Shown: positions 4,518 to 55,138 of the stretch, piece by piece
How the letters are laid out: each line of letters begins with the position of its first letter
How positions within the stretch are numbered: position 1 is the first letter of the stretch
Assembly: GCA_003282175.1 (NCBI GenBank)
Contig: QBZX01000001.1
Location: forward strand, 96,615 to 160,614
DNA: 64,000 nt
Reading direction: 5' to 3'
Source of the DNA: Pelagibacteraceae bacterium AG-337-G06
Lineage (GTDB): Bacteria; Pseudomonadota; Alphaproteobacteria; Pelagibacterales; AG-422-B15
Program-made: the position numbers and the translations under genes
Notes under the pieces: model-generated
What the model was told of the DNA's origin: nothing
The model's database searches: none
Seen by the model: the letters and a program-made list of their open reading frames with translations, nothing else

Positions 4518-5629
4518 TTACAGAGAGTAATAATAAAAAACTTGACCAATTAATTAAAGAAAATGGTTTTGATGTTTTTGGAGTTATACCAGTAAGCTTT
4601 AAATTAGATTTTAAAAAACAGCTTAATGAATTTTTAGATAACAACCATCATGGTGATATGAAATGGATGTATGAAAGATCGCATCTGAGATCTAATCCAA
4701 AATCACTTTGGGACAAAGCAAAATCAATAATAGTACTTGGGGTAAATTATAATTTTAACTGTAATTCACTTGAGCTTCTATCAAATAAGGAAAAAGGAAT
4801 TGTATCAGTATATTCAAGAAATAACGACTATCATAAAATTATCAAAAAAAACTTAAAACAGTTATCAGTAAAAATTTCAGACTCGTATGATTGTGATTAT
4901 AAATACTTCATTGATACAGCGCCAGTAATGGAAAAACCTATAGGTATGTTAGGAGGGATTGGTTGGCAAGGAAAGCACACAAATCTAGTTTCAAAAGACT
5001 TTGGATCATGGCTGTTCCTCTCAACAATATTTGTCGATAAAGAAATTGTATTTTCAGAACCCGAGGTAAATCATTGTGGCTCCTGTTCGGATTGTATAGA
5101 CATATGTCCTACTGGGGCAATAATTGAACCTTATAAGCTAGATGCAAGAAAATGCATTTCCTATCTCACCATAGAACATAAAGGTAATATAGATAAAAAT
5201 TTGAGATCTCTAATAGGAAATAGAATTTATGGATGTGATGACTGTTTAGCTGTGTGCCCATGGAATAAATTTGCCAAATTATCTAATGAAAAAAATTTTC
5301 ATCCTAAAGCAGAACTAATGGAACCTGATCTCAAATCCTTTATCAAACTTGATGATGCACAATTTAGAGAGAAATTTAGTGGATCAAGTATAAAAAGGAT
5401 TGGAAGGGATCGATTTATTAGAAATGTATTGATTGCAATGGGAAATAGTAAAAATAAGGTTTTTATTGAGGATATAAAAGACCTTCTTCATGACGAGTCA
5501 AGCTTAGTTAGGTCAATGGCCGTGTGGGCTCTTAAACAAATAGCAGATACTTATGATTTCAATAATTTCAGAAAAGAGCATATATCTTTAGAGGTAGATA
5601 AAGATGTAAAAGCAGAATGGTTAGATTAG
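4445..5629 (+). CDS. queG: Epoxyqueuosine reductase
   Basis: Two 4Fe-4S motifs (CGSCSDCIDICPTGA, CDDCLAVCPWN), 'DARKCISYLTIE' and a HEAT-like C-terminus. ATG 4445 gives a 73-nt overlap with gltB, so the true start may be later and is uncertain. Confidence 0.85.
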   Translation: MSKRDSQHISSTSGFRKKIEAGQLITESNNKKLDQLIKENGFDVFGVIPVSFKLDFKKQLNEFLDNNHHGDMKWMYERSHLRSNPKSLWDKAKSIIVLGVNYNFNCNSLELLSNKEKGIVSVYSRNNDYHKIIKKNLKQLSVKISDSYDCDYKYFIDTAPVMEKPIGMLGGIGWQGKHTNLVSKDFGSWLFLSTIFVDKEIVFSEPEVNHCGSCSDCIDICPTGAIIEPYKLDARKCISYLTIEHKGNIDKNLRSLIGNRIYGCDDCLAVCPWNKFAKLSNEKNFHPKAELMEPDLKSFIKLDDAQFREKFSGSSIKRIGRDRFIRNVLIAMGNSKNKVFIEDIKDLLHDESSLVRSMAVWALKQIADTYDFNNFRKEHISLEVDKDVKAEWLD

Positions 5630-5633
5630 CATC

Positions 5634-6476
5634 ATGATGTTTATTTATGGATATGGTTATACTTCTCAACATTTGTGTAAGCTATTAATTAGTAACAAGA
5701 TAATTGCAACTTCTCGGAATTGTGAAAAGAAAAAATCAATCAATGATAATATTGAACTTATTGCACCAAGCGAATCAAATTTAATAATAAAGGAACACAG
5801 TGATAAAATAACCCATCTATTGATTTCAGTCCCACCCAGTGATGATGGGGATCTGTTTTTAAATAATTTTAATAAAGATTTACAATCTCTTAAAAATTTA
5901 AAGTGGGTTGGATATTTATCAGCTACAAGTGTGTATGGAGATCATAAAGGTGAATTTGTAAATGAGAACTCTGAACTTCTTACAAAGTTTACTAGAGGTA
6001 TCAATAGAAAACTTGCAGAAGATCAATGGATTGATATTTCAAATAAATATAATCTTCCTCTTCATATATTCAGGATTGCAGGCATATATGGACCACAAAG
6101 AAGCATTATAGATAGAATGAGTTCAGGAAATTTTATTAATGTAATTAAAGATAATCATTTTTTTTCGAGAATTTATATTGATGACTTGGTTAATATAATT
6201 AATGCTTCAATGAATAAACCAAATCCCATAAGTATTTACAATGTTGCTGATGATCTACCATCACCTCTAAATGATGTTGTTAGATATATATCTGAGAAAA
6301 CAGGAATAATAATTGATCGAGAAGTGCAATACTCAGAATTAAGTGAAGATGAAAAAAGAGAAAGTTTCTTCACTGAAAATAAAAAGATTAATAATAAACT
6401 AATAAAGGAGGAATTAGGCGTAATATTAAAGTATCCAACATATATTGAGGGCTATAATAAAATTATTAATTGTTAA
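5634..6476 (+). CDS. NAD(P)-binding epimerase/dehydratase-family (extended SDR) protein
   Basis: N-terminal degenerate Rossmann motif 'IYGYGYTS', plus 'LSATSVYGD' and 'RIAGIYGPQR' motifs typical of this family. Substrate unknown. Confidence 0.6.
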   Translation: MMFIYGYGYTSQHLCKLLISNKIIATSRNCEKKKSINDNIELIAPSESNLIIKEHSDKITHLLISVPPSDDGDLFLNNFNKDLQSLKNLKWVGYLSATSVYGDHKGEFVNENSELLTKFTRGINRKLAEDQWIDISNKYNLPLHIFRIAGIYGPQRSIIDRMSSGNFINVIKDNHFFSRIYIDDLVNIINASMNKPNPISIYNVADDLPSPLNDVVRYISEKTGIIIDREVQYSELSEDEKRESFFTENKKINNKLIKEELGVILKYPTYIEGYNKIINC

Positions 6477-6480
6477 TTTC

Positions 6481-7371
6481 TTAAATTCCAGAATTTGTTT
6501 CAACTTGTAAACGGCTTATTGCGATACCAATCACGACTAAAATAACCCCAATTAATAGTGAATATTTCAAAGGTTCATTCATCAACGCCCACCCGTAAAA
6601 TATTCCAAAAACAGGTATTAAATATGCAACTTGCATCATGAATGTGGTGCCTGCAGAGCGTATTAAAACTTGCCTTAAGCTAAAAGCTAAACCCGTAGGA
6701 ATAATTCCTAAATAAATAACGGCAGTTATTGCTGCAGTGTTTACTTCATAACTCATTGGCTGTGCATAAAAGAACATAAACGGAATAAGCCATATGCTTC
6801 CCCACGCTAGCGTATTCATCGTTACCATGTCGGACGGCAAGTCCGAGACTTTTCTGATAATTAAATTTGATACCACATATGAACAACCTGCAAGATATAT
6901 AGCAAGAGCACCAATAAAACTTGACATATCTGTAACAAAAACCTGCACACCTACAGCAAATACGACTCCTGAAAAGCCTATAATCGTTCCAATTGTTTTT
7001 CTCAAATTGAGTTTTTCATCTTCAGTAAAGTAGTGTGCGAGTACAAGAGCTAAGAAAGGATTTGCAGACATGATTATCACTCCAATATTACTTGGCAGCG
7101 ACATAAGCCCATATGGAATTAATGTAAATGGTATTGCTGCATTAAATAATCCTATGATTGCATAAGTAAATGAATTTTTTTGAAAGAGTTCTAAATTTCC
7201 TGAACGAAAAAGAACAGCCAATAATAATATTAAAGCACCAATAAATGTTCTAAAAAAACCAACTTCAATTGGGTTAAACATTAAATTGCAAAATTTTATT
7301 GCAACAAATGATGCGCCCCATACAGCACCAAGAAAGATTAGAAGAAAATAATTATTTAATGTGGAATTCAC
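6481..7371 (-). CDS. EamA/DMT-family transporter
   Basis: About 10 hydrophobic segments in a duplicated EamA-like arrangement, 296 aa. Confidence 0.8.
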   Translation of the reverse strand: MNSTLNNYFLLIFLGAVWGASFVAIKFCNLMFNPIEVGFFRTFIGALILLLAVLFRSGNLELFQKNSFTYAIIGLFNAAIPFTLIPYGLMSLPSNIGVIIMSANPFLALVLAHYFTEDEKLNLRKTIGTIIGFSGVVFAVGVQVFVTDMSSFIGALAIYLAGCSYVVSNLIIRKVSDLPSDMVTMNTLAWGSIWLIPFMFFYAQPMSYEVNTAAITAVIYLGIIPTGLAFSLRQVLIRSAGTTFMMQVAYLIPVFGIFYGWALMNEPLKYSLLIGVILVVIGIAISRLQVETNSGI

Positions 7372-8117
7372 AGAGCTAACTCTGTGATTGTTTGGAATAA
7401 TATTTTTAGATCCTGATCTCTAGACAAACTATGATCACCATCTTCAATTATTTTCAATTGTTTATTTTCACTTTCGATCTTATTAATAATTTTTTCAGAA
7501 GTCTCAAAACTTACAACTTGGTCTAGTCGCCCATGAAGCAATCTTATTGGACACTTTACTTTAATGGGCTCGTGTAATATCATATTTTTCTTGCCGTCTT
7601 CCAAGAATTTATAAGTTATCGTATAATCTTCTGAATACTTGTCCCAATTGATAATGATTTTTCCATCTTTTTTAATTTGAGTTTTTTGTTCTTCACTCAA
7701 TCTATTCCACTCTCCAACTACAAAGTCAGGAGCTGATGCGATGCCTATTAATCCATTGATCGTTAAAGGATTTCTCTTAGCTACTATTAAAGAAATCCAA
7801 CCTCCCATACTTGACCCAATAATTATATTAATCTTTGATTTACATAAATTGAAAATTTCATGAGCTTCACCAGACCACTTGCTAATACCCCCATCTTCAA
7901 ACTCACCAGTTGACGATCCATGACCTGAATAATCGAATCTTATGAAATTTAAATTATTCGTTTTACACCATGCACTTAAAGCAGTTGCTTTTGTTCCAGT
8001 CATACTGGAGCTATAGCCTCCAAAAAAAAATATTGAGATCTCTGAATTCTGATTCTCATGCAAATATGCAATTTGATCGTTTAGAGATGATTTATGATAT
8101 TTTATATTATTGAGCAT
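7368..8117 (-). CDS. Alpha/beta-fold hydrolase
   Basis: Nucleophile elbow 'GSSMGG', a C-terminal 'DGDHSL' His motif, 249 aa. Shares a 4-nt overlap with the downstream EamA gene. Confidence 0.75.
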   Translation of the reverse strand: MLNNIKYHKSSLNDQIAYLHENQNSEISIFFFGGYSSSMTGTKATALSAWCKTNNLNFIRFDYSGHGSSTGEFEDGGISKWSGEAHEIFNLCKSKINIIIGSSMGGWISLIVAKRNPLTINGLIGIASAPDFVVGEWNRLSEEQKTQIKKDGKIIINWDKYSEDYTITYKFLEDGKKNMILHEPIKVKCPIRLLHGRLDQVVSFETSEKIINKIESENKQLKIIEDGDHSLSRDQDLKILFQTITELAL

Positions 8118-8157
8118 AATGATTTACTATTAAGCATTTAACTATTAGAAATACTAT

Positions 8158-9294
8158 ATGCAATCAAAAATTTGTGTATTGCAAGTTATACCTAATCTTG
8201 ACGTTAGTGGAGCTTCGCAAGGTTGTGTAGATGTTGCAAATTATTTGACAGAAAAAAATTATAATTCCTACATTGCAACAAATTCAGGACAAAATATAAA
8301 GAAAGTTAGTGAACATGAAACTAAAGTCATAAAAGTTCCTGTACATTCAAAGAACCCTTTAATCATAATTTTGAATATCTTTAGGCTTGCAAGGATTATT
8401 AAATTATTTGGTATAAATATTCTTCATGTACGAAGTAGGGCGCCTGCTTGGAGTTCGTATTTTGCTTGTTTAATGACGCGCACTAAATATGTTTCTACTT
8501 TTCATGGAACCTATAATTTTAATAATATTTTGAAAAAATATTACAATTCAGTCATGCTAATGACTGATGGCACAATTGCGATTTCCAAATTTATATATAA
8601 CGAGATCAAGACCAAATATCAAAAAATGCCAAAAGTAATTAAAATAATTCCAAGAGGCATTGACTTAGAATTTTTCAATGTAGCATCTATAGATCAACAA
8701 ATCAAAAATGACATTTTAACAGAGTTTAAAATAAATAAAGATGCAATCAAAATAATGTTGCCTGGGAGAATGACAGAATGGAAAGGTCATTTACTATTAC
8801 TAAAAGCGTTTGAGCAAGTAAGACAACAAACTGAGAAAAAACTTGAATTATTAATGGTAGGGCCTGACGAGAATACTTCACTTAAAAAAAGATTAACGAC
8901 TTTTGTTCAAGAAAAAGATATTGAAGGTAATGTGCATTTTATCAGTGCAAGAAACGATATTAATAACTTTTACAGCATTGCAGATATAGTTGTCTCACCA
9001 TCTACAGATCCCGAGGCTTTTGGTAGAATTTCTGTTGAAGCGCAAGCAATGGGCAAATTTGTTATAGCCTCTAATCATGGGGGTTCAACTGAAACTATTA
9101 TTAATAATGAAACAGGTTACTTATTTAATAACGCCGATGAGAATGATTTATCTGCTAAAATATTAAAAGCAATTAATGAAGATAAACACTGCTCAGAAAC
9201 AGTTAGACAGGCATGTATAACGAATGTTCAAAAAAATTATTCAGATAAAAAAATGTGTGACTCAACTTTAAATTTTTATAATGAAATAATCTGA
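8158..9294 (+). CDS. Glycosyltransferase family 4 (LPS/cell-envelope)
   Basis: GT-B fold C-terminal signature 'PEAFGRISVEAQAMGKFVIASNHGGSTETI'. Confidence 0.8.
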   Translation: MQSKICVLQVIPNLDVSGASQGCVDVANYLTEKNYNSYIATNSGQNIKKVSEHETKVIKVPVHSKNPLIIILNIFRLARIIKLFGINILHVRSRAPAWSSYFACLMTRTKYVSTFHGTYNFNNILKKYYNSVMLMTDGTIAISKFIYNEIKTKYQKMPKVIKIIPRGIDLEFFNVASIDQQIKNDILTEFKINKDAIKIMLPGRMTEWKGHLLLLKAFEQVRQQTEKKLELLMVGPDENTSLKKRLTTFVQEKDIEGNVHFISARNDINNFYSIADIVVSPSTDPEAFGRISVEAQAMGKFVIASNHGGSTETIINNETGYLFNNADENDLSAKILKAINEDKHCSETVRQACITNVQKNYSDKKMCDSTLNFYNEII

Positions 9295-10242: not shown

Positions 10243-11991
10243 ATGTCCTTTATGGAAAATGAAGAAAAATTTATAGACACATTACGTCATGATACGGCCC
10301 ATGTTCTTGCCATGGCTGTTCAAGAGTTATTCCCTGAAACACAAGTCACTATTGGACCTGTTATTGAGAATGGGTTCTACTATGACTTTGATCGCAAAGA
10401 CCCTTTTACTGATAAAGACCTTAGTGTCATCGAAAAGAAGATGAAAGAAATTGTGAATAGAGATGTGAAGACGTCCTTTAAAGTAATGAAAAGAGAAGAT
10501 GCAATTAAATTATTTTTAGATAAAGGTGAAAAATATAAAGTTGAAATTATTAAAGATTTACCTGAAAGTGAAGAGTTAAAAGTATACTACCATGGTGATT
10601 GGTTTGATTTATGTAAAGGTCCACACTTAGAATCAACTGGAAAGATTGGTAAGGCTTTTAAACTAACAAAAGTCGCAGGGGCATATTGGAGGGGTGACTC
10701 CAATAATCCAATGCTGCAAAGAATATATGGCACGGCATGGGAAACTGAAGAAGAATTAAAAAACCACTTAATGCTTTTAGAGGAAGCTGAAAAAAGAGAT
10801 CATAGAAAACTTGGTAAGCAACTTGATTTTTTTCATTTTCAAGAAGAAGCTCCAGGGTCTGTTTTCTGGCATGCAAAAGGATGGACTTTATTCAGAACAT
10901 TAATCGATTACATGAGACATCGCCAAGAGGAAGCTGGTTATGAAGAGATTAATACTCCTGATATTATGGACAAATCTCTATGGGAACTTTCGGGACATTT
11001 AGAAAAATTTGGTGATAACATGTTCACCACTGAAGCAAGGGAAGATAGAGTTTATGCATTAAAGCCTATGAATTGTCCAGGTTGTGTTCAAGTATACAAG
11101 CAGGGATTGAAAAGTTATCGAGATTTGCCATTAAGAGTTGCAGAATTTGGTAAAGTGCACAGATATGAACCATCTGGAGCCCTGCATGGTTTGATGCGAG
11201 TTAGAGCATTTACCCAGGATGATGCTCATATATTTTGTACTGAGGATCAAATTACTGAAGAAAGCAAAAAAGTTTGCGACCTTGTTCTCAGTATTTATAA
11301 AGATTTTGGATTTGATAAAGTTTCAATTAAATTTTCTGATAGACCAGAGAAAAGAGTTGGCAGTGATGCAATATGGGATAAGTCCGAAGAAGCTCTTCGA
11401 CAAGCCATGGAAGCTACAGGATTAGAATATTCATTGAATCCAGGTGAAGGGGCATTTTACGGTCCAAAGCTGGAATTCATTCTTAAAGATGCAATAGGTC
11501 GTGAATGGCAATGTGGTACTTTGCAAGTTGATTTGAATATGCCTGAAAGATTAGGCGGGCATTTTATTGCTGAGGATGGACAAAAATATAATCCAGTAAT
11601 GCTGCACAGAGCACTATTTGGATCATTAGAGCGTTTCACAGGAATATTAATAGAACATTATGCTGGTGCTCTCCCACTATGGCTTTCACCAGTACAAGCG
11701 GTAGTTACACCAATTACTACTGAAATAAATGAATACGGTGAAGAAGTTTATTCAAGTTTAAAAAACGCTGGAATAAGGGTTGAAAAAGATCTACGCAACG
11801 AAAAAATTAGTTATAAAATAAGAGAAAATTCACTCAAAAAAATTCCATTTCAATTAATTCTTGGAAAGAAAGAAATTGAAGAACGTTCTATAACAATGAG
11901 AGCGTTTGGAAGCGACAAACAAGAAAAAATAAAGTTTGAAAATTTAAATGATTTTTTTATAAAAAAATGTATGATGCCATCACAACAATAG
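10243..11991 (+). CDS. thrS: Threonyl-tRNA synthetase (lacks N-terminal TGS domain)
   Basis: Editing-domain '[12 protein letters not shown]', class II core '[17 protein letters not shown]', 'RDHRKLGK', '[10 protein letters not shown]', and an anticodon-binding C-terminus. The protein begins at the position equivalent to about residue 66 of E. coli ThrRS. Confidence 0.95.
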
Positions 11992-18544: not shown

Positions 18545-18634
18545 GGAAAGGTGGCCGAGTGGTTGAAGGCGCACGCTTGGAAAGCGTGTATGCGGGTGAC
18601 CGTATCGTGGGTTCGAATCCCATCCTTTCCGCCA
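18545..18634 (+). tRNA. tRNA-Ser (anticodon GGA)
   Basis: Acceptor GGAAAGG/CCTTTCC, D-loop 'GCCGAGTGGTTGAAGGC', anticodon stem CACGC/GCGTG with loop TT-GGA-AA, a long variable arm, T-loop GGTTCGAATCC, and an encoded CCA. It starts immediately after the lepA stop. Confidence 0.9.
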
Positions 18635-24695: not shown

Positions 24696-25148
24696 ATGAT
24701 TAATTTTTTTCAATTTCTTGTCTCCACAATTCTATCGATATTAATCTTAATTGTAATTGCTTTTGCAGACGATCATGGAAATATTATTAAAGAGAGGAAA
24801 TCACTATTTAAGCAGAATTATAGCCATGCTAAGAGAATGAGCGCTGAAATTACTAAAGGGAATAATGAGAAAGTTATTGAGCTATCACAAAAGATGAGCA
24901 CAAATTATGACAGGCTTTTAGATTTATTCCCAGATAACGCCAAAACAGGCTACGATACAGAGGCTTTGCCAACGATATGGCTACAAAAAGAAGAGTTTAA
25001 TACTCTCATGATAGAGACTTCAAATAAGGTTAAAGAATTTACAGTTCTTGCATCCGAACTAACCGGCAACGAGTTGAAAGATGCCCAAAAGAAACTAATC
25101 TGGTCAAGTTGTAAGACTTGTCACGATAAGTTTAGAATGCCTCATTAA
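24696..25148 (+). CDS. Class II cytochrome c (c'/c-556 type)
   Basis: Signal/anchor peptide, a helical body, and a C-terminal haem site 'CKTCHDKFR'. Divergent from the cytochrome b561 gene. Confidence 0.75.
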   Translation: MINFFQFLVSTILSILILIVIAFADDHGNIIKERKSLFKQNYSHAKRMSAEITKGNNEKVIELSQKMSTNYDRLLDLFPDNAKTGYDTEALPTIWLQKEEFNTLMIETSNKVKEFTVLASELTGNELKDAQKKLIWSSCKTCHDKFRMPH

Positions 25149-25615: not shown

Positions 25616-27079
25616 ATGATAAATCATAATGAGTCATTTTCAAATATTGGATTAAAGCTGAAGGCAACTTATACCCAATTGCCTGAGATTCTTTTCTCTA
25701 AACTAATGCCTATAAGTGTTAAAGACCCCAAAACTGTAGCTCTCAATGAAGCATTATCTACAGAATTGGGAATTGATTTTTCGAAACTGTCTAGTGAAGA
25801 CCTCTCTAATTTTTTATCTGGTAATACAATACCCAGTGGAATTGGTCCTTTCGCACAAGCATACGCTGGTCATCAATTTGGAAATTTTACAATTCTTGGC
25901 GATGGAAGAGCTCTAACTATAGGAGAGCAAAGCACACCTAAAGGCGAACTTTATGATATTCAGTTTAAGGGATCAGGAAGAACACCATACTCAAGGGGAG
26001 GCGATGGAAGAGCTGCTTTGGGTCCTATGCTTCGCGAATATTTAATTAGTGAAGCCATGTTCTATTTAAATATTCCTACCACAAGAAGTCTTGCTGTTGT
26101 TGAAACAGGAGAAAAAGTTTTTAGAGAGACTCCTTTAAAAGGAGCCATCTTAACAAGAGTTGCAGCTAGTCATGTTAGGTTTGGCACATTCCAATTCTTA
26201 GCAGCACATAAAGACATCGATGCTATGTCAAAGTTACTTGACTACTGCATCAAAAGACATTTTCCGGATATCTTAGATAGTCCAAATAAAGTAATTAAAT
26301 TTATAGAGTTAGTGATGTCAAAACAAATTGATTTGATTGTAAACTGGATGAGGGTTGGATTTATACATGGTGTTATGAATACTGATAATTCAACCATTTG
26401 TGGAGAAACTATAGACTACGGTCCATGCGCATTTATGGATCAGTATGATCATAAAGCAGTGTTTAGTTCTATTGATTTTCAAGGAAGGTACGCCTATGGT
26501 AATCAACCTACTACTATTCATTGGAATTTAATTAGACTTGCTGAAAGTTTGCTACCTTTAATTGATAAAGATGAGTCAAGATCAATAGAAATCGCCCAGA
26601 AAACAATCGACTCATTCAGTAAAATTTTTAACAAAAAATGGCAAAAAATGATGAGATCAAAACTTGGAATAAATAATCGAAGCGGAGAGGATGATGTTTT
26701 AGTCAAAGATTTGCTTACATGGATGCAATCAAAAAAACCAGACTTCACTAATACTTTTTGTAACTTGATGGGCAGTAAACATGCAAATGATAGGGAGTTT
26801 GAGGATGAAGACTTCATATTATGGAAAAAAAATTGGAAAGAAAGGGTCAATAATATTGATTATCTAAATATCATGAAAAAAACAAATCCTATTTTAATTC
26901 CTAGAAATTATTTAGTTGAAGAAGCTTTAACTGAAGCTGAAGCAGAAGGCAAATTCACTAAATTTAATGAACTACTTGTTGTTCTTTCAAAGCCATATGA
27001 GCAACTAGACATCGATGAAAAATATTCGAAAACCCCTCAAATTCAAGCTGAACCTTACAGGACTTTCTGCGGAACATAG
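25616..27079 (+). CDS. selO: Protein adenylyltransferase SelO (YdiU)
   Basis: 'YAGHQFGNFTILGDGRA', 'QFKGSGRTPYSRGGDGRA', 'GFIHGVMNTDN' and 'DYGPCAFMD' motifs. Confidence 0.9.
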   Translation: MINHNESFSNIGLKLKATYTQLPEILFSKLMPISVKDPKTVALNEALSTELGIDFSKLSSEDLSNFLSGNTIPSGIGPFAQAYAGHQFGNFTILGDGRALTIGEQSTPKGELYDIQFKGSGRTPYSRGGDGRAALGPMLREYLISEAMFYLNIPTTRSLAVVETGEKVFRETPLKGAILTRVAASHVRFGTFQFLAAHKDIDAMSKLLDYCIKRHFPDILDSPNKVIKFIELVMSKQIDLIVNWMRVGFIHGVMNTDNSTICGETIDYGPCAFMDQYDHKAVFSSIDFQGRYAYGNQPTTIHWNLIRLAESLLPLIDKDESRSIEIAQKTIDSFSKIFNKKWQKMMRSKLGINNRSGEDDVLVKDLLTWMQSKKPDFTNTFCNLMGSKHANDREFEDEDFILWKKNWKERVNNIDYLNIMKKTNPILIPRNYLVEEALTEAEAEGKFTKFNELLVVLSKPYEQLDIDEKYSKTPQIQAEPYRTFCGT

Positions 27080-28202: not shown

Positions 28203-29027
28203 TTAAGGTTTCCATTCTGGCGTTCCAAAAAAAGACAAAAGTTTATTTTTTAAACCTGAAGATTTTTTAAAATGAGTATACATTAAATACCAAAACATAA
28301 AGGTTATTTTTAAAGGGTTAAAAGTCTTGACATTTTCTCGTATTCCGTAGGTAACCTCTTCATCTTCAGCAGCAAAAGTTCCAAATATTTTATCCCAGAC
28401 GATTAGAAGATTTCCATAATTTTTATCAATATAAAATTCATTGCTGCCATGGTGCACGCGGTGATGTGATGGGGTAATAAATAAATACTCAAGTATGCCT
28501 AGTTTGCCAACCCATTTTGTATGCGTTAATAGTCCATAAAGAGTTGATATGGCCCCCGCAACTGCGGTAATAATTGGATCAAAGCCAATAAGTGGCATTA
28601 TGGCAAAAAAGGGTACTTTCGTTAACGAACCAAACCATGGTTGTCTAAGGGCTACAGAGAAATTCATTTCTTCACTTGAGTGATGATTCATATGTACTGC
28701 CCATAAAAATCTTACTCTGTGCGAGCATCGGTGGTACCAATAATAGACGAAGTCAATAATTATAAATGTCAAAGCCCAAACAGCCCAAGAAGGCAACAAT
28801 TCATTTATCGTTAACAATTTATATTGATAAAGATAAAGTGAGAAAAAAAAGATAGAACTTTTTGTTAAAAGGGAAATTGTGACATTGCCAAACAATAGTC
28901 CAAAACCTGCAAGCGAGTCTTTTAACTTATAGTATCCTAAATTATTGATCGTTGAGTAAGCCACTTCAGCAATAATAAGCGATAGAACTATAGGAATACC
29001 GTATAAATATATATCTAATTCATTCAT
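28203..29027 (-). CDS. Fatty acid hydroxylase / sterol desaturase-family membrane di-iron enzyme
   Basis: Three His boxes: 'HRCSHR', 'HMNHH', 'HHRVHH'. Four or more TM helices. Confidence 0.85.
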   Translation of the reverse strand: MNELDIYLYGIPIVLSLIIAEVAYSTINNLGYYKLKDSLAGFGLLFGNVTISLLTKSSIFFFSLYLYQYKLLTINELLPSWAVWALTFIIIDFVYYWYHRCSHRVRFLWAVHMNHHSSEEMNFSVALRQPWFGSLTKVPFFAIMPLIGFDPIITAVAGAISTLYGLLTHTKWVGKLGILEYLFITPSHHRVHHGSNEFYIDKNYGNLLIVWDKIFGTFAAEDEEVTYGIRENVKTFNPLKITFMFWYLMYTHFKKSSGLKNKLLSFFGTPEWKP

Positions 29028-29073
29028 GTTTTTTCTATTGAAATATATAACATTAGATTTAATTGATAAAAGT

Positions 29074-29643
29074 ATGAAAAATATATTATTTATAACAATT
29101 ATTACATTTACCCTAATTTGCTCAGCTTTTTCAGCAGGAGGCGGTGGATCAGGAGGTAGTTCAGGCGGTGGATCAGGAGGTAGTTCAGGCGGTGGATCAG
29201 GAGGTAGTTCAGGCGGTTCGGGAGGTAGCTCTGGTGAATCAGATGGTACTGGCTATCGTGGTTCTACTGGTTTTGATGCAGAATTAAAAAAAATTGTTCA
29301 TGAAATTGAGAAGATGCAGAATTACGAGTTTGCCCTAAAAGAATTAGAGGTATATGTCTATGAAAATCCTGAAAATGCACATGGTTGGAATTTTATTGGA
29401 TTTACTAGTAGAAAATTAAGTAGGTATGAGGAAGCCGAGATTTATTATAAAACTGGCCTCGAGATCGACCCAAATCACGAAGGGATATTAGCTTATCAGG
29501 GTGAGCTTTTCCTTGAAACTGAAAGATATGAGAAGGCTCTAGCGAACTATGCCCAGCTTTCAGATCTTTGCAATTTTAATTGTACCGAAAAAAAAGAGTT
29601 GGGTGATGCAATTGCTCAATATGAGATAGATAATAATCTCTAA
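29074..29643 (+). CDS. Secreted TPR-repeat protein with Gly/Ser-repeat linker
   Basis: Signal peptide 'MKNILFITIITFTLICSAFSA', then (GGGSGGSS)x3 plus a degenerate copy, then about 3 TPR units ('AHGWNFIGFTSRKLSRYEEAEIYYKTGLEIDPNH...'). The start was moved from 29026 to ATG 29074. Confidence 0.7.
   Translation: MKNILFITIITFTLICSAFSAGGGGSGGSSGGGSGGSSGGGSGGSSGGSGGSSGESDGTGYRGSTGFDAELKKIVHEIEKMQNYEFALKELEVYVYENPENAHGWNFIGFTSRKLSRYEEAEIYYKTGLEIDPNHEGILAYQGELFLETERYEKALANYAQLSDLCNFNCTEKKELGDAIAQYEIDNNL
29140..29211 (+). repeat. Perfect 24-bp tandem repeat x3 (encodes GGGSGGSS)
   Basis: GGCGGTGGATCAGGAGGTAGTTCA occurs at 29140-63, 29164-87 and 29188-211 with no mismatch. A degenerate fourth copy follows to about 29232. 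Confidence 0.95.
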
Positions 29644-29691: not shown

Positions 29692-29910
29692 ATGATTAAA
29701 TTTTTAGTATTTTTCGTTTTAGGTGCAGCTACTTTATATTTTATTATCCGCGCATTTGTTAACAGTGAACCAGGAAAAGTTGGACGATTTTTGAAGGTTA
29801 TTTTCATAGCAGCTATAATCTTTGGAACAATTTATTTATTGTTTCGAGGTAATCTTGGTTTTCTCGCACCGCTTGTTGGCTTAGCTAGAAGATTGTTAGT
29901 TGGCTTTTAA
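29692..29910 (+). CDS. Hypothetical 72-aa membrane protein (2-3 TM)
   Basis: Hydrophobic segments 'FLVFFVLGAATLYFII' and 'VIFIAAIIFGTIYLLF'. It lies in operon position between the TPR and beta-helix genes. Confidence 0.45.
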   Translation: MIKFLVFFVLGAATLYFIIRAFVNSEPGKVGRFLKVIFIAAIIFGTIYLLFRGNLGFLAPLVGLARRLLVGF

Positions 29911-29911
29911 A

Positions 29912-31573
29912 ATGGAACAAACTTTCAAAAAGATATTTATAATCTCTTTCTTCTTTGTCTCATCCTTAATTTTTTTCACATCTTGCGATAATGGCGTAGA
30001 GCAGTCCGCAGCTTTTACCGGAGTAAGGGTAATTGATAATTCTTATTCGCCTCCTGTTGTGCGTATCAATCCAGGGGGTAAAGTAAGGTTTAATAACTGG
30101 GGCAATAACCCCCACAATGTTATAGCGGTCGATGAAAGTTGGGGCTCCTTGGCAGAAATTCCAAAGGGCGACTATCTTGATATAAATTATGAAAATGAAG
30201 GACTGTACAAATATTTGTGCTCATTCCATGCATCTCCTGATGGAAAATGGGGTATGGTTGGTTCTGTTGTTGTCGGTGATATAAATTATGAAGACTATAC
30301 CAACTTTTCAAAAAAAGATGTGGTTTCAAGGTTTACTGGAAATGTAAGGAATGTGCCAGATCAATATGAAACAATTCAAGACGCTGTTAATGCCTCAAAC
30401 CCAGGTGACCTCGTTTTAATTAAGCCAGGAATTTACTATGAAGAAGTAGTTGTGAATGTTCCCTCAATTACCATTAGAGGTTGGGACAGAAATACAACAA
30501 TCATCGATGGTGAGTTTGAGAGAGGTAATGGTATTTTAGTTGCAGGCGTTGATGGAGTAGTCATAGAAAATTTAACTGCAAGGAATGCATTACTGAATGG
30601 TTTTTATTGGGCAACAGTAAAAGGATATAGGGGATCTTATTTAACAGCGTATAACAATGGTGATTATGGAGTATACGCTTTTGATGCAGTCGATGGAGTT
30701 TTAGATCATTCTTATGCCTCTGGCTCACCAGATGCAGGTTTCTATATTGGCCAATGTTACCCATGTGATGCAATTGTTAATAATGTCATCTCTGAAAATA
30801 ATGGTCTAGGTTACTCAGGAACAAACTCAGGTGGATCATTGTATATTATAAGTTCAGTTTTTAAAAATAATAAAGGTGGATTAGCGCCCAACACTTTAGA
30901 CTCGGAACTTCTACCGCCAGAAAGAGAAACTTTTATTATTGGGAATCTTATTAAAAACAATAACAACATAGATGCCCCTGCAACCCAAGCAACCAATTTG
31001 TCTCTTGGAAATGGAGTTGTCATAGCAGGAGGAAATAATAATATTATTAAAAATAATGTTATAGCTAATCATAACCTTTATGGTGTTATTATAACAGCCA
31101 CTGCAGATGTGAATTACTGGCCTGCTCATGGCAACAGGGTTGAAAGCAATTTAATCATAAATTCTAAAAGAGCTGATATAGCATCTAGTGGTCTCTCAAA
31201 TTTAGGTAATTGTTTTGAAAATAATTATTTCAATACTTCAATTCCACCAGGCTTACAAACACTCAATAATTGTGACTCTTCCTTTTATCCCTTAAGTGCA
31301 GATTTGTCAGGTATGTGGTCATCTTTAGCACGTGTAATTCAGACAAGTGATGGAAACTATAATCAAGGTGATTGGCGTACATTTGAAGCGCCAACCAATC
31401 AACCTAATATGCCCATTATGGAGGAATTAATAGACCTTGGTTACGATAAAACAACATTGCCTGTTTTAAAAATATGGAGCTCAGTTAAGCCTGCAGTTGA
31501 GGTTTTTAGTCAATATGATGATGTTTTGGAGGAAATAGAGCTGCCTCAAGAGGCCAGAAACTATTTGAACTAA
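29912..31573 (+). CDS. Lipoprotein with N-terminal cupredoxin domain fused to a right-handed beta-helix (NosD/CASH-like) domain
   Basis: Lipobox-like 'LIFFTSC'. Plastocyanin-like segment 'GGKVRFNNWGNNPHNV...GLYKYLCSFHASPDGKWGMVGSVVV' with candidate His/Cys/His/Met ligands. Repetitive 'G..I....N.I.NN' beta-helix turns follow ('NVISENNGLGYSG', 'IGNLIKNNNN', 'NNIIKNNVIANHN'). ATG 29912 is preferred over TTG 29900. Confidence 0.7.
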   Translation: MEQTFKKIFIISFFFVSSLIFFTSCDNGVEQSAAFTGVRVIDNSYSPPVVRINPGGKVRFNNWGNNPHNVIAVDESWGSLAEIPKGDYLDINYENEGLYKYLCSFHASPDGKWGMVGSVVVGDINYEDYTNFSKKDVVSRFTGNVRNVPDQYETIQDAVNASNPGDLVLIKPGIYYEEVVVNVPSITIRGWDRNTTIIDGEFERGNGILVAGVDGVVIENLTARNALLNGFYWATVKGYRGSYLTAYNNGDYGVYAFDAVDGVLDHSYASGSPDAGFYIGQCYPCDAIVNNVISENNGLGYSGTNSGGSLYIISSVFKNNKGGLAPNTLDSELLPPERETFIIGNLIKNNNNIDAPATQATNLSLGNGVVIAGGNNNIIKNNVIANHNLYGVIITATADVNYWPAHGNRVESNLIINSKRADIASSGLSNLGNCFENNYFNTSIPPGLQTLNNCDSSFYPLSADLSGMWSSLARVIQTSDGNYNQGDWRTFEAPTNQPNMPIMEELIDLGYDKTTLPVLKIWSSVKPAVEVFSQYDDVLEEIELPQEARNYLN

Positions 31574-31613: not shown

Positions 31614-31934
31614 ATGCCTGGAGTTACTTTCTTTCCATTAGAGGATGTTCCGTTCTTATCGCTTTTTTTTAATTTTTATGGGTATTATCTTCCTATCTTT
31701 TTATATGCAACTTGGACAGCAACAGCTTTATTTGACTTACATATCGGAAAATACAGGAGTATTCCTTCTAAAATAGCTTGGACAATGGTACTGATGTTCA
31801 TTCCTTTAGTTGGCCCACTTATTTATCATATGTTTGCTGCCAGGGAATTGGACGTTGTGATTAGAGCTACAATGATTTTCGGTGGTATTGCTGTCATGAC
31901 TATTGTTTTTTTATATCTTGGTTTTGCGCTCTAA
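31614..31934 (+). CDS. PLDc_N-domain small membrane protein
   Basis: 'WTATALFDLHIGKYRSIPSKIAWTMVLMFIPLVGPLIYHMF' fits the W..D...K..W...P..G...Y pattern of the cardiolipin-synthase N-terminal (PLDc_N) domain. Confidence 0.6.
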   Translation: MPGVTFFPLEDVPFLSLFFNFYGYYLPIFLYATWTATALFDLHIGKYRSIPSKIAWTMVLMFIPLVGPLIYHMFAARELDVVIRATMIFGGIAVMTIVFLYLGFAL

Positions 31935-31940
31935 ATAAAA

Positions 31941-32771
31941 GTGAAGTTCGACCCACGAATAACTCCCATCAAGAGTAATTTAGCTGCTTCCACTTATAAA
32001 TATATCGTTAAAAGGAAAAAATTCTCTAAAGGCAAAAAATATACAGTAACCTCTTCGTTTGCTCCATTGTACTCAAATAAAAAATCTAAATTAAGCACTC
32101 AACTTTTATTTGGAGAAGAATGTACCGCATATGAAGTATCTAGGGATTGGTCTTGGGTTCAATCATCAAGAGATCAATATGTGGGATATGTACCCTCAGC
32201 AAATCTATCAAAAAAATTATTTAAACCTACTCACAAAGTAACGTCCCTTCGTACATACCTTTACAAGGAACCTGATATCAAAAGCAAAGATCTATTTCAC
32301 TTAAGCTTTAATTCGGTTTTAGAAGTAAAAAAAACTAAAGGAAAGTTTTCTCTAATCAACGGAATAGGTTGGTGTCCAACAAGTGATTTGTCTGCAATTA
32401 ATGAAATTGAGTTAGATGTAGTTAAATGTGCAAATCAGTATCTAAATACCCCTTATTTATGGGGAGGAAGAAGTTCTGTAGGTATTGATTGTTCAGGACT
32501 TGTTCAAAATTTAATGCAAATTAATAATAAAATTTTCCCAAGAGATACGGATATGCAAGAAAATTTTATAACTAAAGAGATTTTGAGTGAAAAGAAACTT
32601 AAAGCAGGTGATTTAATTTTTTGGAAAGGTCATGTAGCCATGATGATAGATAATAAATATATTATTCACGCTAATGCTTATCATATGAAAACTGCAATTG
32701 AGTTATTAAGTTTTGCAAAAAAAAGAATATTCAAAACGAATGGTAAAATAAGAAAAATGGGCAGACTTTAA
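31941..32771 (+). CDS. NlpC/P60 (C40) peptidase with SH3b-like N-domain, no signal peptide
   Basis: 'YLWGGRSSVGIDCSGLVQ' holds the catalytic Cys, and 'GHVAMMIDNKYIIHA' the His. GTG start. The hydrophilic N-terminus suggests a cytoplasmic location. Confidence 0.85.
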   Translation: MKFDPRITPIKSNLAASTYKYIVKRKKFSKGKKYTVTSSFAPLYSNKKSKLSTQLLFGEECTAYEVSRDWSWVQSSRDQYVGYVPSANLSKKLFKPTHKVTSLRTYLYKEPDIKSKDLFHLSFNSVLEVKKTKGKFSLINGIGWCPTSDLSAINEIELDVVKCANQYLNTPYLWGGRSSVGIDCSGLVQNLMQINNKIFPRDTDMQENFITKEILSEKKLKAGDLIFWKGHVAMMIDNKYIIHANAYHMKTAIELLSFAKKRIFKTNGKIRKMGRL

Positions 32772-34165: not shown

Positions 34166-34720
34166 TTATTCAATTGGAGCGGGATTATCGCTGAAACTTC
34201 TTAAATAAAGAATAACATTTGCGCGGTCCTTAGCTTTTTTGAGACCGACAAAAGACATCTTTGTACCTTGAATATATTTTTTTGGATTAATTAAATAACT
34301 ATTTAATTGCTCATATGTCCAATCACCCTCAAAGGCTGCCATTGCACTAGAATATTTATAATCATCTTTTGAACCAATATCTTTATTTACAATATTCCAT
34401 AAAGCTGGGCCAATTTTATTAGCACCGCCTTTTTCCATAACATGACACTGTGAACATTTCTTAAATACTTTTTTGCCCTTATCTAGATCAGCGCTAGCTA
34501 GAAGAACTTGAATAGGGTCTTCGGTGGGGGCTTGGGCAACTGCCTCAGTTGAAGTTGCAGCCGCATCCATTAATATTTCATCACCGCCATCAACTTGATA
34601 AGCAGCAACCTTTGGCTTTTCAACATGATAGAGAATTTCACTAAAGTTTGCTAATCCAATAAACACAAGAGCTACCACTAAAATACAGGCAACAATTTTG
34701 TTAATTTCGAATGAATCCAT
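34166..34720 (-). CDS. Membrane-anchored class I cytochrome c (CycM-like)
   Basis: N-terminal TM anchor, haem site 'CSQCH', distal 'GTKMSF' Met, and 'ILYLRS' C-terminus. Confidence 0.85.
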   Translation of the reverse strand: MDSFEINKIVACILVVALVFIGLANFSEILYHVEKPKVAAYQVDGGDEILMDAAATSTEAVAQAPTEDPIQVLLASADLDKGKKVFKKCSQCHVMEKGGANKIGPALWNIVNKDIGSKDDYKYSSAMAAFEGDWTYEQLNSYLINPKKYIQGTKMSFVGLKKAKDRANVILYLRSFSDNPAPIE

Positions 34721-51608: not shown

Positions 51609-51685
51609 GCGCCGGTGGCTCAGCTGGATAGAGCACCAGACTACGAATCTGGGGGTCGGGAGTTCGAATCTCTCCCGGCGCGCCA
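51609..51685 (+). tRNA. tRNA-Arg (anticodon ACG)
   Basis: Acceptor GCGCCGG/CCGGCGC, D-arm 'GCTCAGCTGGATAGAGC', anticodon stem CCAGA/TCTGG with loop CT-ACG-AA, T-loop 'GGTTCGAATCT...' and an encoded CCA. 77 nt. Confidence 0.9.
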
Positions 51686-51695
51686 AAAAAATATT

Positions 51696-52577
51696 ATGTT
51701 TGAAAAACTATCAAATAAACAAAAAGGAACATTACTTGCTTTTATAGGTGTCATGATTATTACTCCAGATGCGCTTATTATAAGATCTGTGAGTATTGAG
51801 ACATGGGATCTTTTATTTTACCGCTCACTTTTACCAGGCTTTACTCTCTTAGTAGGATATTTTGTTTTTTTTAATCATAGAGCCTTAGACGATTTTATGG
51901 GCATTGGAATGCCAGGCATTATCAATGCACTATTAGTTCTTGGTGCTAATGTGACTTTTGTAATGGCACTGGCAAACACAGATGTAGCAAATGCACTAAT
52001 CATGATTAGTTTAGTGCCAATAATTGCAGCAATTTTTTCTTTTATTTTCTTAAATGAAAAGCCTGAGATAATTACATGGTTTTGTTCTTTTGGATGCCTA
52101 TTAGCAGTAGTTTTCATTTTTTATGAGTCATATGAACTCAATAAATATTTAGGAGACTTCTATGGTTTACTATGCGCAATTTTTGTTGGCGCTAGTCTCA
52201 CGGTAATGAGAAGATCACCTGAAATAAATTTTGTACCCTCATATATTCTAGGTAAATTAGCTACCGCTGTACTATCAGCATTTTTTGTCTCGTCATTTGT
52301 CATTGAAACTTATGATTTATTATTGATATCTCTTATGATTATAACTGTGGGAGTATCGTTTGTATTTATTAGTATAGCGCCTCAATATATAAGTTCGCCA
52401 GAAGTTGGAATATTTTTTCTTCTTGAAACTTCGCTGGGTCCTTTATGGGTATGGCTGTTTATATTTGAACAACCTACTCAGAAAACCTTGATAGGAGGTA
52501 TATTAATTATACTTATAGTATTTGGACATTCTTACTACATGATAAAAAAAGAAAATATTGATAGGGTATCTCTATGA
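51696..52577 (+). CDS. EamA/DMT-family transporter
   Basis: 10 TM segments in a duplicated EamA pattern. The start was set to ATG 51696 because the ORF-track extension from 51615 is the tRNA-Arg read as protein. Confidence 0.75.
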   Translation: MFEKLSNKQKGTLLAFIGVMIITPDALIIRSVSIETWDLLFYRSLLPGFTLLVGYFVFFNHRALDDFMGIGMPGIINALLVLGANVTFVMALANTDVANALIMISLVPIIAAIFSFIFLNEKPEIITWFCSFGCLLAVVFIFYESYELNKYLGDFYGLLCAIFVGASLTVMRRSPEINFVPSYILGKLATAVLSAFFVSSFVIETYDLLLISLMIITVGVSFVFISIAPQYISSPEVGIFFLLETSLGPLWVWLFIFEQPTQKTLIGGILIILIVFGHSYYMIKKENIDRVSL

Positions 52578-54370: not shown

Positions 54371-55138
54371 ATGAATTACAACCCTACTGGTTTTGTTACT
54401 CTTTACAAAAAGGAAGTCCAAAGGTTTACAAAAATACCTTTGCAGACAATTGCCGCACCTGCTTTAACAAGCTTGTTATTTTTAATCATATTCACAACAG
54501 CTATTGGCTCTGTGAGAGCAGACTATCCATTAGATAGCTTTAAAAATTTTCTTTTTCCAGGACTTATCATGATGACTATTATTCAGAATGCGTTTATGAA
54601 TAATTCATCATCAATTTTAATGTCTAAGGTACAAGGGAATATTGTAGATTTGCTTATGCCTCCACTTAGTAACGTTGAAATTATTTTGGCATTCACTCTT
54701 GCTGGAATAACCCGAGGTCTCGCGTCAGCTGTTGCGTGTGCTTTAGTTATGATGCCATTTATTGAGGTTACTGTTTATAATTTATGGATTATTTTAATCT
54801 TTGCTATTCTAGCATCAGCTATAATGGCGTTGATTGGGATGATATCTGGTATCTGGGCTGAAAAATGGGACCATCTAGGTACAGTTGGTAATTTTGTGAT
54901 CGTACCACTATCTTTTTTGTCCGGAACTTTTTATTCAATTACAGTTCTACCGGATGTAATCCAAAGGGCAAGTCTCATTAACCCATTCTTTTATATGATA
55001 GATGGTTTCAGGTTTGGATTCTTAGGGGCAAGCGACTCTTCAATTTTGCATGCATTTACTATCTTGATTATGGTTTTGATATCTCTAATAGTTATTAATT
55101 ATTTAATGTTAAAAACTGGGTATAAATTAAGAGCTTAA
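54371..55138 (+). CDS. ABC-2 type transporter permease (YadH-like)
   Basis: 'LYKKEVQRFTKIPLQTIAAPALTSLLFLIIF' with 6 TM segments, 255 aa. No ATPase gene is adjacent. Confidence 0.8.
   Translation: MNYNPTGFVTLYKKEVQRFTKIPLQTIAAPALTSLLFLIIFTTAIGSVRADYPLDSFKNFLFPGLIMMTIIQNAFMNNSSSILMSKVQGNIVDLLMPPLSNVEIILAFTLAGITRGLASAVACALVMMPFIEVTVYNLWIILIFAILASAIMALIGMISGIWAEKWDHLGTVGNFVIVPLSFLSGTFYSITVLPDVIQRASLINPFFYMIDGFRFGFLGASDSSILHAFTILIMVLISLIVINYLMLKTGYKLRA

Follow-up and report, generated by a model that had tools for sequence, protein, structure and literature searches.

Plastocyanin, pseudoazurin and amicyanin, the copper carriers of Pfam family PF00127, have a Greek-key fold, a His-Cys-His-Met set of copper ligands and the motifs PHN and C-x2-H, and the plastocyanin-type proteins are free soluble carriers. 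In this study, we describe a gene on a stretch of 64,000 nucleotides (nt) from the SAR11 bacterium Pelagibacteraceae bacterium AG-337-G06 (contig QBZX01000001.1, positions 96,615 to 160,614 of the forward strand), which we refer to as the window. Its product shares this fold and these motifs, with Nmar_1307 of Nitrosopumilus maritimus (structure 5fc9) as the closest solved protein, but the cupredoxin forms the N-terminal ~90 residues of a predicted lipoprotein of 553 amino acids (aa), in which a right-handed parallel beta-helix follows.

The beta-helix part can be compared with three kinds of described proteins. NosD (TIGR04247, PF05048, structure 7o0y), which belongs to the assembly of the nitrous oxide (N2O) reductase, is a periplasmic right-handed beta-helix with an N-terminal cap similar to that of the window protein, and some lineages of the family described here also have a NosD-like setting, being encoded beside a copper enzyme exported by the twin-arginine translocation (TAT) pathway and a copper chaperone. 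In contrast to NosD, the window protein scores far under the NosD thresholds, lacks NosF, NosY, NosL and NosZ as partners in the gene contexts examined, carries a fused type-1 copper domain and has a membrane partner of the PLDc_N type in place of an ATP-binding cassette (ABC) transporter. Carbohydrate enzymes such as AlgE4/AlgE6, the PL6 lyases, Pel9A and the CE8 pectinesterases have the overall fold and the N-terminal cap motif in common with the window beta-helix, but they are only 12–16% identical to it and none of them bears a redox domain. The third kind, the TIGR03805 proteins, provides the best-scoring curated model for the window beta-helix, which relatives without a cupredoxin match too, in all cases below the cutoff. 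The genes of TIGR03805 proteins typically neighbour one for a dihaem cytochrome c, which, if true, would offer a parallel for the pairing of a beta-helix with an electron carrier.

Cupredoxins tethered to enzymes are also known. The cupredoxin domains of Nmar_1354 (9cck) and of the cupredoxin-tethered nitrite reductase 6hbe are, together with 5fc9, among the solved structures closest to the window domain. Nmar_1354 couples hydroxylamine oxidation to O2 reduction, and the type-1 copper of its tethered cupredoxin lies 13.5 Å from the type-1 copper of the oxidase (PMC11761707). There, a related cupredoxin serves an oxidase homologous to the one encoded in the Leptospira and Rhodospirillaceae operons described below. 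The window cupredoxin differs in being fused to a beta-helix and not to an oxidase, and in SAR11 such an oxidase was found neither in the window nor, for ~45 related genomes, within 8 kb of the gene.

Results

The N-terminal domain is predicted to be a plastocyanin-type copper domain

Domains were assigned from Pfam and NCBIfam scans, an alignment and profile of 36 family members, an AlphaFold2 model and Foldseek (Table 1). The model was built with an alignment and has a mean predicted local distance difference test score (pLDDT) of 85.2 and a predicted template modelling score (pTM) of 0.83. The open reading frame (ORF) could also start at a TTG at 29900, but the ATG at 29912 is the more plausible start: counted from there, the protein has the 553 aa of its 95%-identical database homologs. 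A protein identical to the product of the window gene is on record in NCBI. The G+C content of the window is ~33%.

A first-pass annotation of the window, made from the sequence by a model, had read the N-terminus as a cupredoxin with a full His/Cys/His/Met ligand set, and this is upheld by Pfam, the family profile, Foldseek and the invariance of the ligands. Both motifs that it quoted are present: GGKVRFNNWGNNPHNV holds H68, and YKYLCSFHASPDGKWGM holds C103, H106 and M115 in the pattern Cys-x2-His-x8-Met. For the window protein alone, the Pfam Copper-bind match (PF00127) is marginal, with 21.8 bits against a cutoff of 21.2 (aa 44–121), and the NCBIfam matches to halocyanin, pseudoazurin and plastocyanin are sub-threshold; homologs score between 23 and 38 bits with Copper-bind. 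The 36-member profile matched the Nitrosopumilus cupredoxin 5fc9 (E = 9e-11), plastocyanin 1bxu (1.9e-8) and pseudoazurin 1pmy (1.3e-7), as well as amicyanins. According to Foldseek, the N-terminal domain of the AlphaFold2 model superimposes on 5fc9 with a TM score of 0.77 and a root-mean-square deviation (rmsd) of 2.1 Å at 29% identity, and its other matches include many pseudoazurins, plastocyanins and amicyanins.

In the profile alignments, C103 and H106 occupy the C-x2-H positions, H68 that of the PHN histidine and M115 that of the axial methionine in the "GM" motif. The four residues are invariant in the 36-sequence alignment, down to 48% identity. The same set (HCHM) is found in 118 of 120 close homologs, the remaining two being truncated, and when we took the best 150 representatives of clusters at 50% identity, 27 had HCHM and four had HCHQ; one of these two patterns was seen in every sequence in which the complete domain could be aligned. 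Glutamine is known to serve as an axial ligand as well. That the His2-Cys-Met set and the PHN motif align on the ligands of plastocyanin and pseudoazurin indicates an electron-transfer site and not a chaperone site. From its fold and ligands, the domain is thus predicted to be a true plastocyanin-type type-1 copper electron-transfer domain.

The loop between the second histidine and the methionine had been described as unusually long, and it is. The alignments with plastocyanin and pseudoazurin place a four-residue insertion ahead of M115, and among 132 sequences the spacer counts 8 residues in 114, 7 in ten, 6 in seven and 11 in one. A spacer of 6–8 residues in 131 of 132 sequences makes the long loop a trait of the family, compared to 4 residues in plastocyanin and pseudoazurin. 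In amicyanin, the spacing is 2.

The beta-helix is related to, but distinct from, curated families

The remainder of the protein had been read as a right-handed parallel beta-helix, in agreement with what we find with Pfam Beta_helix (PF13229, 1.1e-10), the strands of the model and Foldseek. In the AlphaFold2 model, periodic three-strand rungs run from about aa 187 to 436 and are followed by a helical tail. The best Foldseek matches of this part are the mannuronan epimerases AlgE4 and AlgE6, PL6 lyases, a GH87 glucanase, Pel9A and phage tailspikes, with E values between 1e-6 and 1e-4 at the low identity given above.

The same annotation had called the protein NosD-like, and this part was not confirmed. 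TIGR04247 gives 28.2 bits against a cutoff of 300, over model positions 1–66 only; Pfam NosD (PF05048) did not report the window protein; a profile of the beta-helix alone reached the solved NosD 7o0y with E = 0.22 only; and NosD is missing from the top 50 Foldseek matches, in which the closest structural neighbours of the beta-helix are other proteins. The beta-helix-only profile matches pectinesterases across the same N-terminal cap, at best with E = 3e-7. As far as profiles and predicted folds tell, the likeness to NosD is that of a generic beta-helix fold and an N-terminal cap also present in pectinesterases, and nothing more. The best curated model, TIGR03805, scores 70.9 bits (1e-19, aa 155–400) against a cutoff of 141.5, and relatives without a cupredoxin score 55–123 bits with it. 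Scores below the cutoffs of both TIGR03805 and NosD point to a clade that has no dedicated curated model; the beta-helix is accordingly assigned, on its sequence, to a large clade related to TIGR03805 and NosD yet distinct from both.

The statement that nos genes are absent from the window was correct: neither a CuA motif nor an ABC ATPase signature occurs in any of its ORFs, and the sole ABC-2 permease (54371–55138) is 23 kb distant from the cupredoxin/beta-helix gene. Likewise, nosZ, nosF, nosY and nosL were not seen in the annotated gene contexts of relatives.

Invariant residues that are not structural are concentrated at aa 248–336; C-terminal of about aa 340, invariance is seen mainly at Asn and Gly. 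In the first region, the invariant columns are D251, Y252, Y255, D274, Y278, Q281, the pair C282-x2-C285 (30755–30766), E295, Y301, S302, N305, N327, D330 and E332. Relatives without a cupredoxin keep Y252, Y255, D274, Y278, C282, C285, N305 and E332, together with D422, C434 and C454. Going by the strand register of the model, the conserved residues appear to lie on one face of a sheet and its flanking turns, where they would form a candidate groove for a ligand or partner. A sheet face with its flanking turns is the usual ligand groove of beta-helix enzymes.

The gene is paired with a PLDc_N gene and, in other lineages, lies in a copper operon

The gene had been described as an orphan. Our analysis of gene order does not bear this out: it is always paired with a downstream PLDc_N gene, and in other lineages it is part of a copper operon with a multicopper oxidase and Sco1. 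For this comparison, we used 86 loci from SAR11, Leptospira, Leptospiraceae, Spirochaetaceae and Rhodospirillaceae. In the window, the PLDc_N ORF begins 40 nt downstream of the cupredoxin/beta-helix gene, and a PLDc_N gene directly follows the beta-helix gene in all of the ~80 loci with enough downstream DNA. The two genes are an invariant pair. The window PLDc_N is orthologous to the downstream genes of Leptospira and Rhodospirillaceae (E of 1e-13 to 1e-14). In Leptospira, the beta-helix protein of ~668 aa carries an additional, fused PLDc_N domain at its C-terminal end, and a second, free PLDc_N gene comes next. PLDc_N fusions were recorded in P0088, P0095, P0106 and P0168, the last of which is an actinobacteria-like relative. 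At one further locus, of a high-GC lineage (L089), an overlapping gene for a DUF1996 protein (7559–8485) and not a PLDc_N gene lies downstream of the family member P0132, and a separate Cupredoxin_1 protein is encoded 5 kb upstream.

At all Leptospira-type loci, the PLDc_N gene is followed by genes for a two-domain multicopper oxidase with a TAT signal and for Sco1/SenC. The two-domain oxidase is encoded directly downstream at every locus from Leptospira, Leptospiraceae and Rhodospirillaceae, and it is present at two alphaproteobacterial loci, L003 and L072. It is homologous to the two-domain oxidases 3gdc (4.5e-60), 7rab and Nitrosopumilus Nmar_1354 (9cck, 4e-38), and HxH and HCH motifs can be recognized in it by eye. 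We also considered a nitrite reductase and rejected it, as the protein scores 80–97 bits against the NirK cutoff of 296 and matches two-domain multicopper oxidases best. In SAR11, by tblastn, neither the two-domain oxidase nor Sco1 was found in the 64-kb window, and a multicopper oxidase and Sco1 were not found within 8 kb in ~45 SAR11 loci.

In Leptospira chreensis (NZ_JAFFPS010000071.1), the four-gene operon occurs twice with the same layout (337415–355022 and 64405–82012, our loci L084 and L085). In Leptospira alexanderi (L052), the oxidase was matched as two separate tblastn pieces, 10517–10840 and 10846–11355, which suggests a frameshift or a pseudogene.

The fusion belongs to a large and patchily distributed family

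The window protein has more than 5,250 database matches, and 389 loci were found in species-representative genomes. In an exhaustive search of 1.84 billion representatives, 6,382 relatives were recovered at E ≤ 1e-3 and 345 at E ≤ 1e-30. Among the best 150 representatives, 31 have the cupredoxin with its ligand set and 115 have no cupredoxin, so a sizeable subfamily couples the beta-helix to a type-1 copper carrier. The fusion is found in SAR11, Leptospira, Rhodospirillaceae and actinobacteria-like genomes. Outside SAR11, the closest relatives, at ~50% identity, are from Leptospira and Leptospiraceae and not from other Alphaproteobacteria, a patchy distribution that hints at horizontal transfer.

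In one relative without a cupredoxin (P0183, JGI 3300047160), a stand-alone cupredoxin gene of 146 aa (5323–5763) lies 19 bp upstream of the beta-helix gene (5782–7107) on the same strand. This arrangement is a split version of the fusion and, with the fusions themselves, favours a cupredoxin and a beta-helix that act as one unit. Other members of the beta-helix clade without a cupredoxin (P0229, P0237, P0241 and P0122) are fused to a C-terminal PD40/TolB-like beta-propeller or occur in tandem duplicate.

The protein is probably held at the inner membrane

The lipid anchor proposed by the first-pass annotation is likely on in silico grounds, namely a lipobox and the conservation of Cys25. The N-terminus, MEQTFKKIFIISFFFVSSLIFFTSC followed by Asp, is a signal peptide that ends in the lipobox with Cys25, and the AlphaFold2 model has a helix at aa 2–23. 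At least 90% of the sequences in the 36-member alignment have Cys25; of 150 cupredoxin-bearing members, 120 have a lipobox and 81 show Asp at +2, as the SAR11 members do. In Escherichia coli, Asp at +2 favours retention in the inner membrane, a rule from that organism that may not hold in SAR11. The window protein is probably a periplasmic lipoprotein tethered to the inner membrane. The lipid anchor is ~10 residues ahead of the cupredoxin, and at the C-terminal tail a membrane protein is either fused or present as a partner, which puts both ends at the membrane surface; the protein thus probably lies flat on the periplasmic face of the inner membrane.

Discussion

A single-electron relay is tentatively proposed

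A tethered and invariant type-1 copper site implies the movement of electrons to or from something held by the beta-helix. The reading that we prefer, tentatively, is that of a single-electron relay at the membrane surface, serving whatever binds the conserved beta-helix region. The type-1 copper would shuttle electrons one at a time between a redox partner, periplasmic or respiratory, and the occupant of this region, that is, of rungs 3–6 with their Asp, Tyr and Glu residues and the invariant C282-x2-C285. In Leptospira and Rhodospirillaceae, the redox partner would most likely be the co-encoded, TAT-exported two-domain multicopper oxidase, and the cupredoxin would be a separately encoded counterpart of the tethered cupredoxin of Nitrosopumilus Nmar_1354. 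Since SAR11 has no local oxidase, its redox partner is more likely to be a c-type cytochrome or the respiratory chain.

Several observations weigh against such a relay. We could not identify a redox cofactor or metal site in the beta-helix. The multicopper oxidase is missing from the SAR11 loci, over the ranges given above, and from the surroundings of P0132 and P0168, and a cytochrome c is proposed for SAR11 solely because c-type cytochromes generally occur there, one of them encoded at 34166–34720 on the opposite strand. Moreover, no cupredoxin gene was found near three of the four cupredoxin-less relatives examined (P0150, P0194 and P0237). Together with the 115 of 150 representatives that lack a cupredoxin and with the residues that such relatives conserve, this indicates that the beta-helix has a function of its own; evidently, it can work without an electron carrier.

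That function could be enzymatic. The beta-helix may work on a glycan of the periplasm or envelope, as a lyase, epimerase or hydrolase, with the cupredoxin as an accessory that supplies or withdraws electrons for an oxidative step or plays a part in regulation or structure. Its closest structural matches are indeed AlgE4/AlgE6 epimerases, PL6 alginate lyases, the GH87 glucanase and Pel9A, the conserved Asp, Tyr and Glu residues are gathered in rungs 3–6 and are kept in members without a cupredoxin, and the SAR11 gene is on the same strand as a gene for an NlpC/P60 peptidase and adjoins that of an AmpG-like transporter of the major facilitator superfamily (MFS). We nevertheless consider this unlikely: the structural matches have only 12–16% identity and E values of 1e-6 to 1e-4, sequence profiles match pectinesterases in the N-terminal cap only, the cell-wall neighbours are specific to SAR11 and absent in every other lineage, and nothing in the known chemistry of lyases, epimerases or hydrolases calls for an invariant electron-transfer copper site. 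A role in assembly like that of NosD seems to us rather improbable as well. Here, the beta-helix would be a scaffold that helps to load copper or sulfur into the multicopper oxidase or, in SAR11, into a cuproenzyme such as cytochrome oxidase, with Sco1 as the copper donor and the PLDc_N protein as the membrane anchor. The Leptospira-type operon, with its TAT-exported oxidase and Sco1/SenC, parallels the set of NosZ, NosD and NosL, the invariant CxxC pair could bind Cu(I), and some relatives weakly pass the Pfam NosD threshold of 23.6 bits (P0117 with 32.5 and P0095 with 24.1). This is opposed by the NosD comparisons reported above (28.2 of 300 bits, in the cap only; E = 0.22 to 7o0y; no NosD in the Foldseek top 50), by the N-domain site, which is of the electron-transfer His2CysMet type and not of the chaperone type, and by gene context: a NosF- or NosY-like ABC ATPase or permease was found in no context examined, and SAR11, P0132 and P0168 have no local oxidase and Sco1.

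The copper site itself could be questioned, if the N-terminal domain were a relic without copper and its ligand-like residues a coincidence. The marginal Pfam score of the single sequence (21.8 vs. 21.2 bits) would fit this. The four ligands are, however, invariant from SAR11 through Leptospira to high-GC lineages, with Met to Gln as the sole substitution, and the profile E values down to 9e-11 and the fold match at 2.1 Å rmsd make a degenerate domain highly improbable.

The relay could also be part of a larger activity. In this bolder form, which we regard as doubtful, the cupredoxin/beta-helix protein and PLDc_N would make up a new periplasmic copper-dependent oxidoreductase, in which the CxxC region acts by oxidation or reduction on a substrate of the envelope or periplasm, for example a glycan, a muropeptide or the thiols of a protein or small molecule, and the electrons travel singly via the type-1 copper to the multicopper oxidase in Leptospira or to the cytochrome chain in SAR11. 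If so, the protein would have a redox-enzyme role not known for the beta-helix fold and would be a conserved, unrecognised point of electron entry or exit in the respiratory chain of SAR11, the ocean's most abundant heterotroph.

Prior record and significance

We found no description of the cupredoxin/beta-helix architecture in the literature on Leptospira, plastocyanin, NosD or multicopper oxidases. The 2025 ISME J paper on the SAR11 pangenome was considered as a prior description and rejected, as it reports a petE-type gene in three coastal genomes, on a copper island with multicopper oxidases, which is another context. Each part is of a known kind, and there is precedent for a tethered cupredoxin; one on a beta-helix with a PLDc_N partner is uncharacterised. 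The architecture, which had been called unusual, is so only among characterised proteins; in sequence space it belongs to the large family described above, whose members are annotated as "plastocyanin". This is the JGI label for members of the window protein's own cluster, and NCBI labels the Leptospira proteins "plastocyanin" or "right-handed parallel beta-helix repeat-containing protein". Current annotation hides the architecture and is misleading. In a transcriptome table of L. interrogans, LIC12217, labelled "petE plastocyanin", is mildly repressed by serum; it is probably the candidate Leptospira ortholog of the window protein.

SAR11 genomes are extremely streamlined, and SAR11 has a known requirement for copper in oceans that are poor in it. 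These genomes nevertheless retain a copper-protein gene of ~1.7 kb and its small membrane partner in ~45 species-level lineages. The identity of the partner of the beta-helix would define a new periplasmic copper-dependent function that adds to the SAR11 copper requirement. The nearest relatives outside SAR11 include pathogenic species of Leptospira. The Leptospira operon, which includes the multicopper oxidase and Sco1, lends itself to genetic analysis.

Gene neighbourhood in SAR11

In a scan of species-representative genomes, ~45 single-cell and metagenome-assembled genomes of Pelagibacteraceae were found to hold the gene, with 64–96% identity and conserved synteny. The order in SAR11 is a tetratricopeptide repeat (TPR) protein gene, an ORF for a 72-aa membrane protein, the beta-helix gene, PLDc_N and NlpC/P60, with the AmpG-like MFS gene and a membrane cytochrome c gene as neighbours on the opposite strand. 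The TPR protein has a long, low-complexity Gly/Ser-rich linker, (GGGSGGS)n, after its signal sequence; in most SAR11 loci its gene is conserved directly upstream, and it was found there neither in divergent SAR11 nor in other lineages. The 72-aa ORF is likewise kept upstream in most SAR11 loci and is absent from divergent SAR11 and from all non-SAR11 loci. Only 1 nt separates its stop codon from the ATG of the main gene, a spacing suggestive of translational coupling. A scan for promoters and terminators gave counts no different from those of shuffled sequence.

Table 1. Features of the cupredoxin/beta-helix gene and its neighbours, in window coordinates
Feature	Position	Strand	Basis
Whole gene, 553-aa cupredoxin/beta-helix lipoprotein (predicted)	29912..31573	+	ORF list; homologs of equal length; stop 31571-31573
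Lipoprotein signal peptide, lipobox FFTSC at end	29912..29986	+	Cys25 29984-29986, Asp at +2; read from sequence
Plastocyanin-type cupredoxin domain, aa ~35-122	30014..30277	+	Pfam PF00127, family profile, Foldseek
Type-1 copper ligand codons (predicted)	H68 30113-30115, C103 30218-30220, H106 30227-30229, M115 30254-30256	+	Codons checked
Interdomain linker, aa 123-143	30278..30340	+	aa 130-133 with low pLDDT; sparse secondary structure
Right-handed parallel beta-helix, aa ~144-460, ~9 rungs	30341..31291	+	PF13229, TIGR03805 below cutoff, Foldseek, strand pattern
Best-conserved beta-helix stretch, aa 248-336, rungs 3-6	30653..30919	+	Invariant alignment columns
C-terminal helical tail, aa 461-553	31292..31570	+	AlphaFold2 model, helices at aa 466-552
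Partner gene, 106-aa PLDc_N small membrane protein, ~3 hydrophobic segments	31614..31934	+	Pfam PF13396, 33.9 bits vs. cutoff 23.3; hydropathy
72-aa ORF, two hydrophobic helices, possible SAR11-subclade operon member	29692..29910	+	No family match; synteny
TPR protein	29026..29643	+	Pfam TPR; synteny; SAR11-specific
NlpC/P60 + SH3 peptidase, 6 nt after PLDc_N gene	31941..32771	+	Pfam; same-strand neighbour in all SAR11 loci, SAR11 only

Further upstream, a SelO/YdiU-family protein of 487 aa is encoded at 25616–27079 on the plus strand (PF02696 in the syntenic locus L006) and belongs to the conserved SAR11 block. About 5 kb upstream, a cytochrome b561 gene (PF01292, 24148–24678, minus strand) and a cytochrome c' gene (PF01322, with CxxCH, 24696–25148, plus strand) form a divergent pair. 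Cytochrome c' is a haem protein that binds gases (nitric oxide and carbon monoxide). Elsewhere in the window, a tRNA-Ser(GGA) is located at 18545–18634, and a tRNA-Arg(ACG) at 51609–51685 on the plus strand overlaps the start of a 320-aa ORF with a GTG start (51615–52577, plus strand). The N-terminus of this ORF, AQLDRAPDYESGGREFESLPARQ, is translated tRNA, which places the true start of the gene further downstream.

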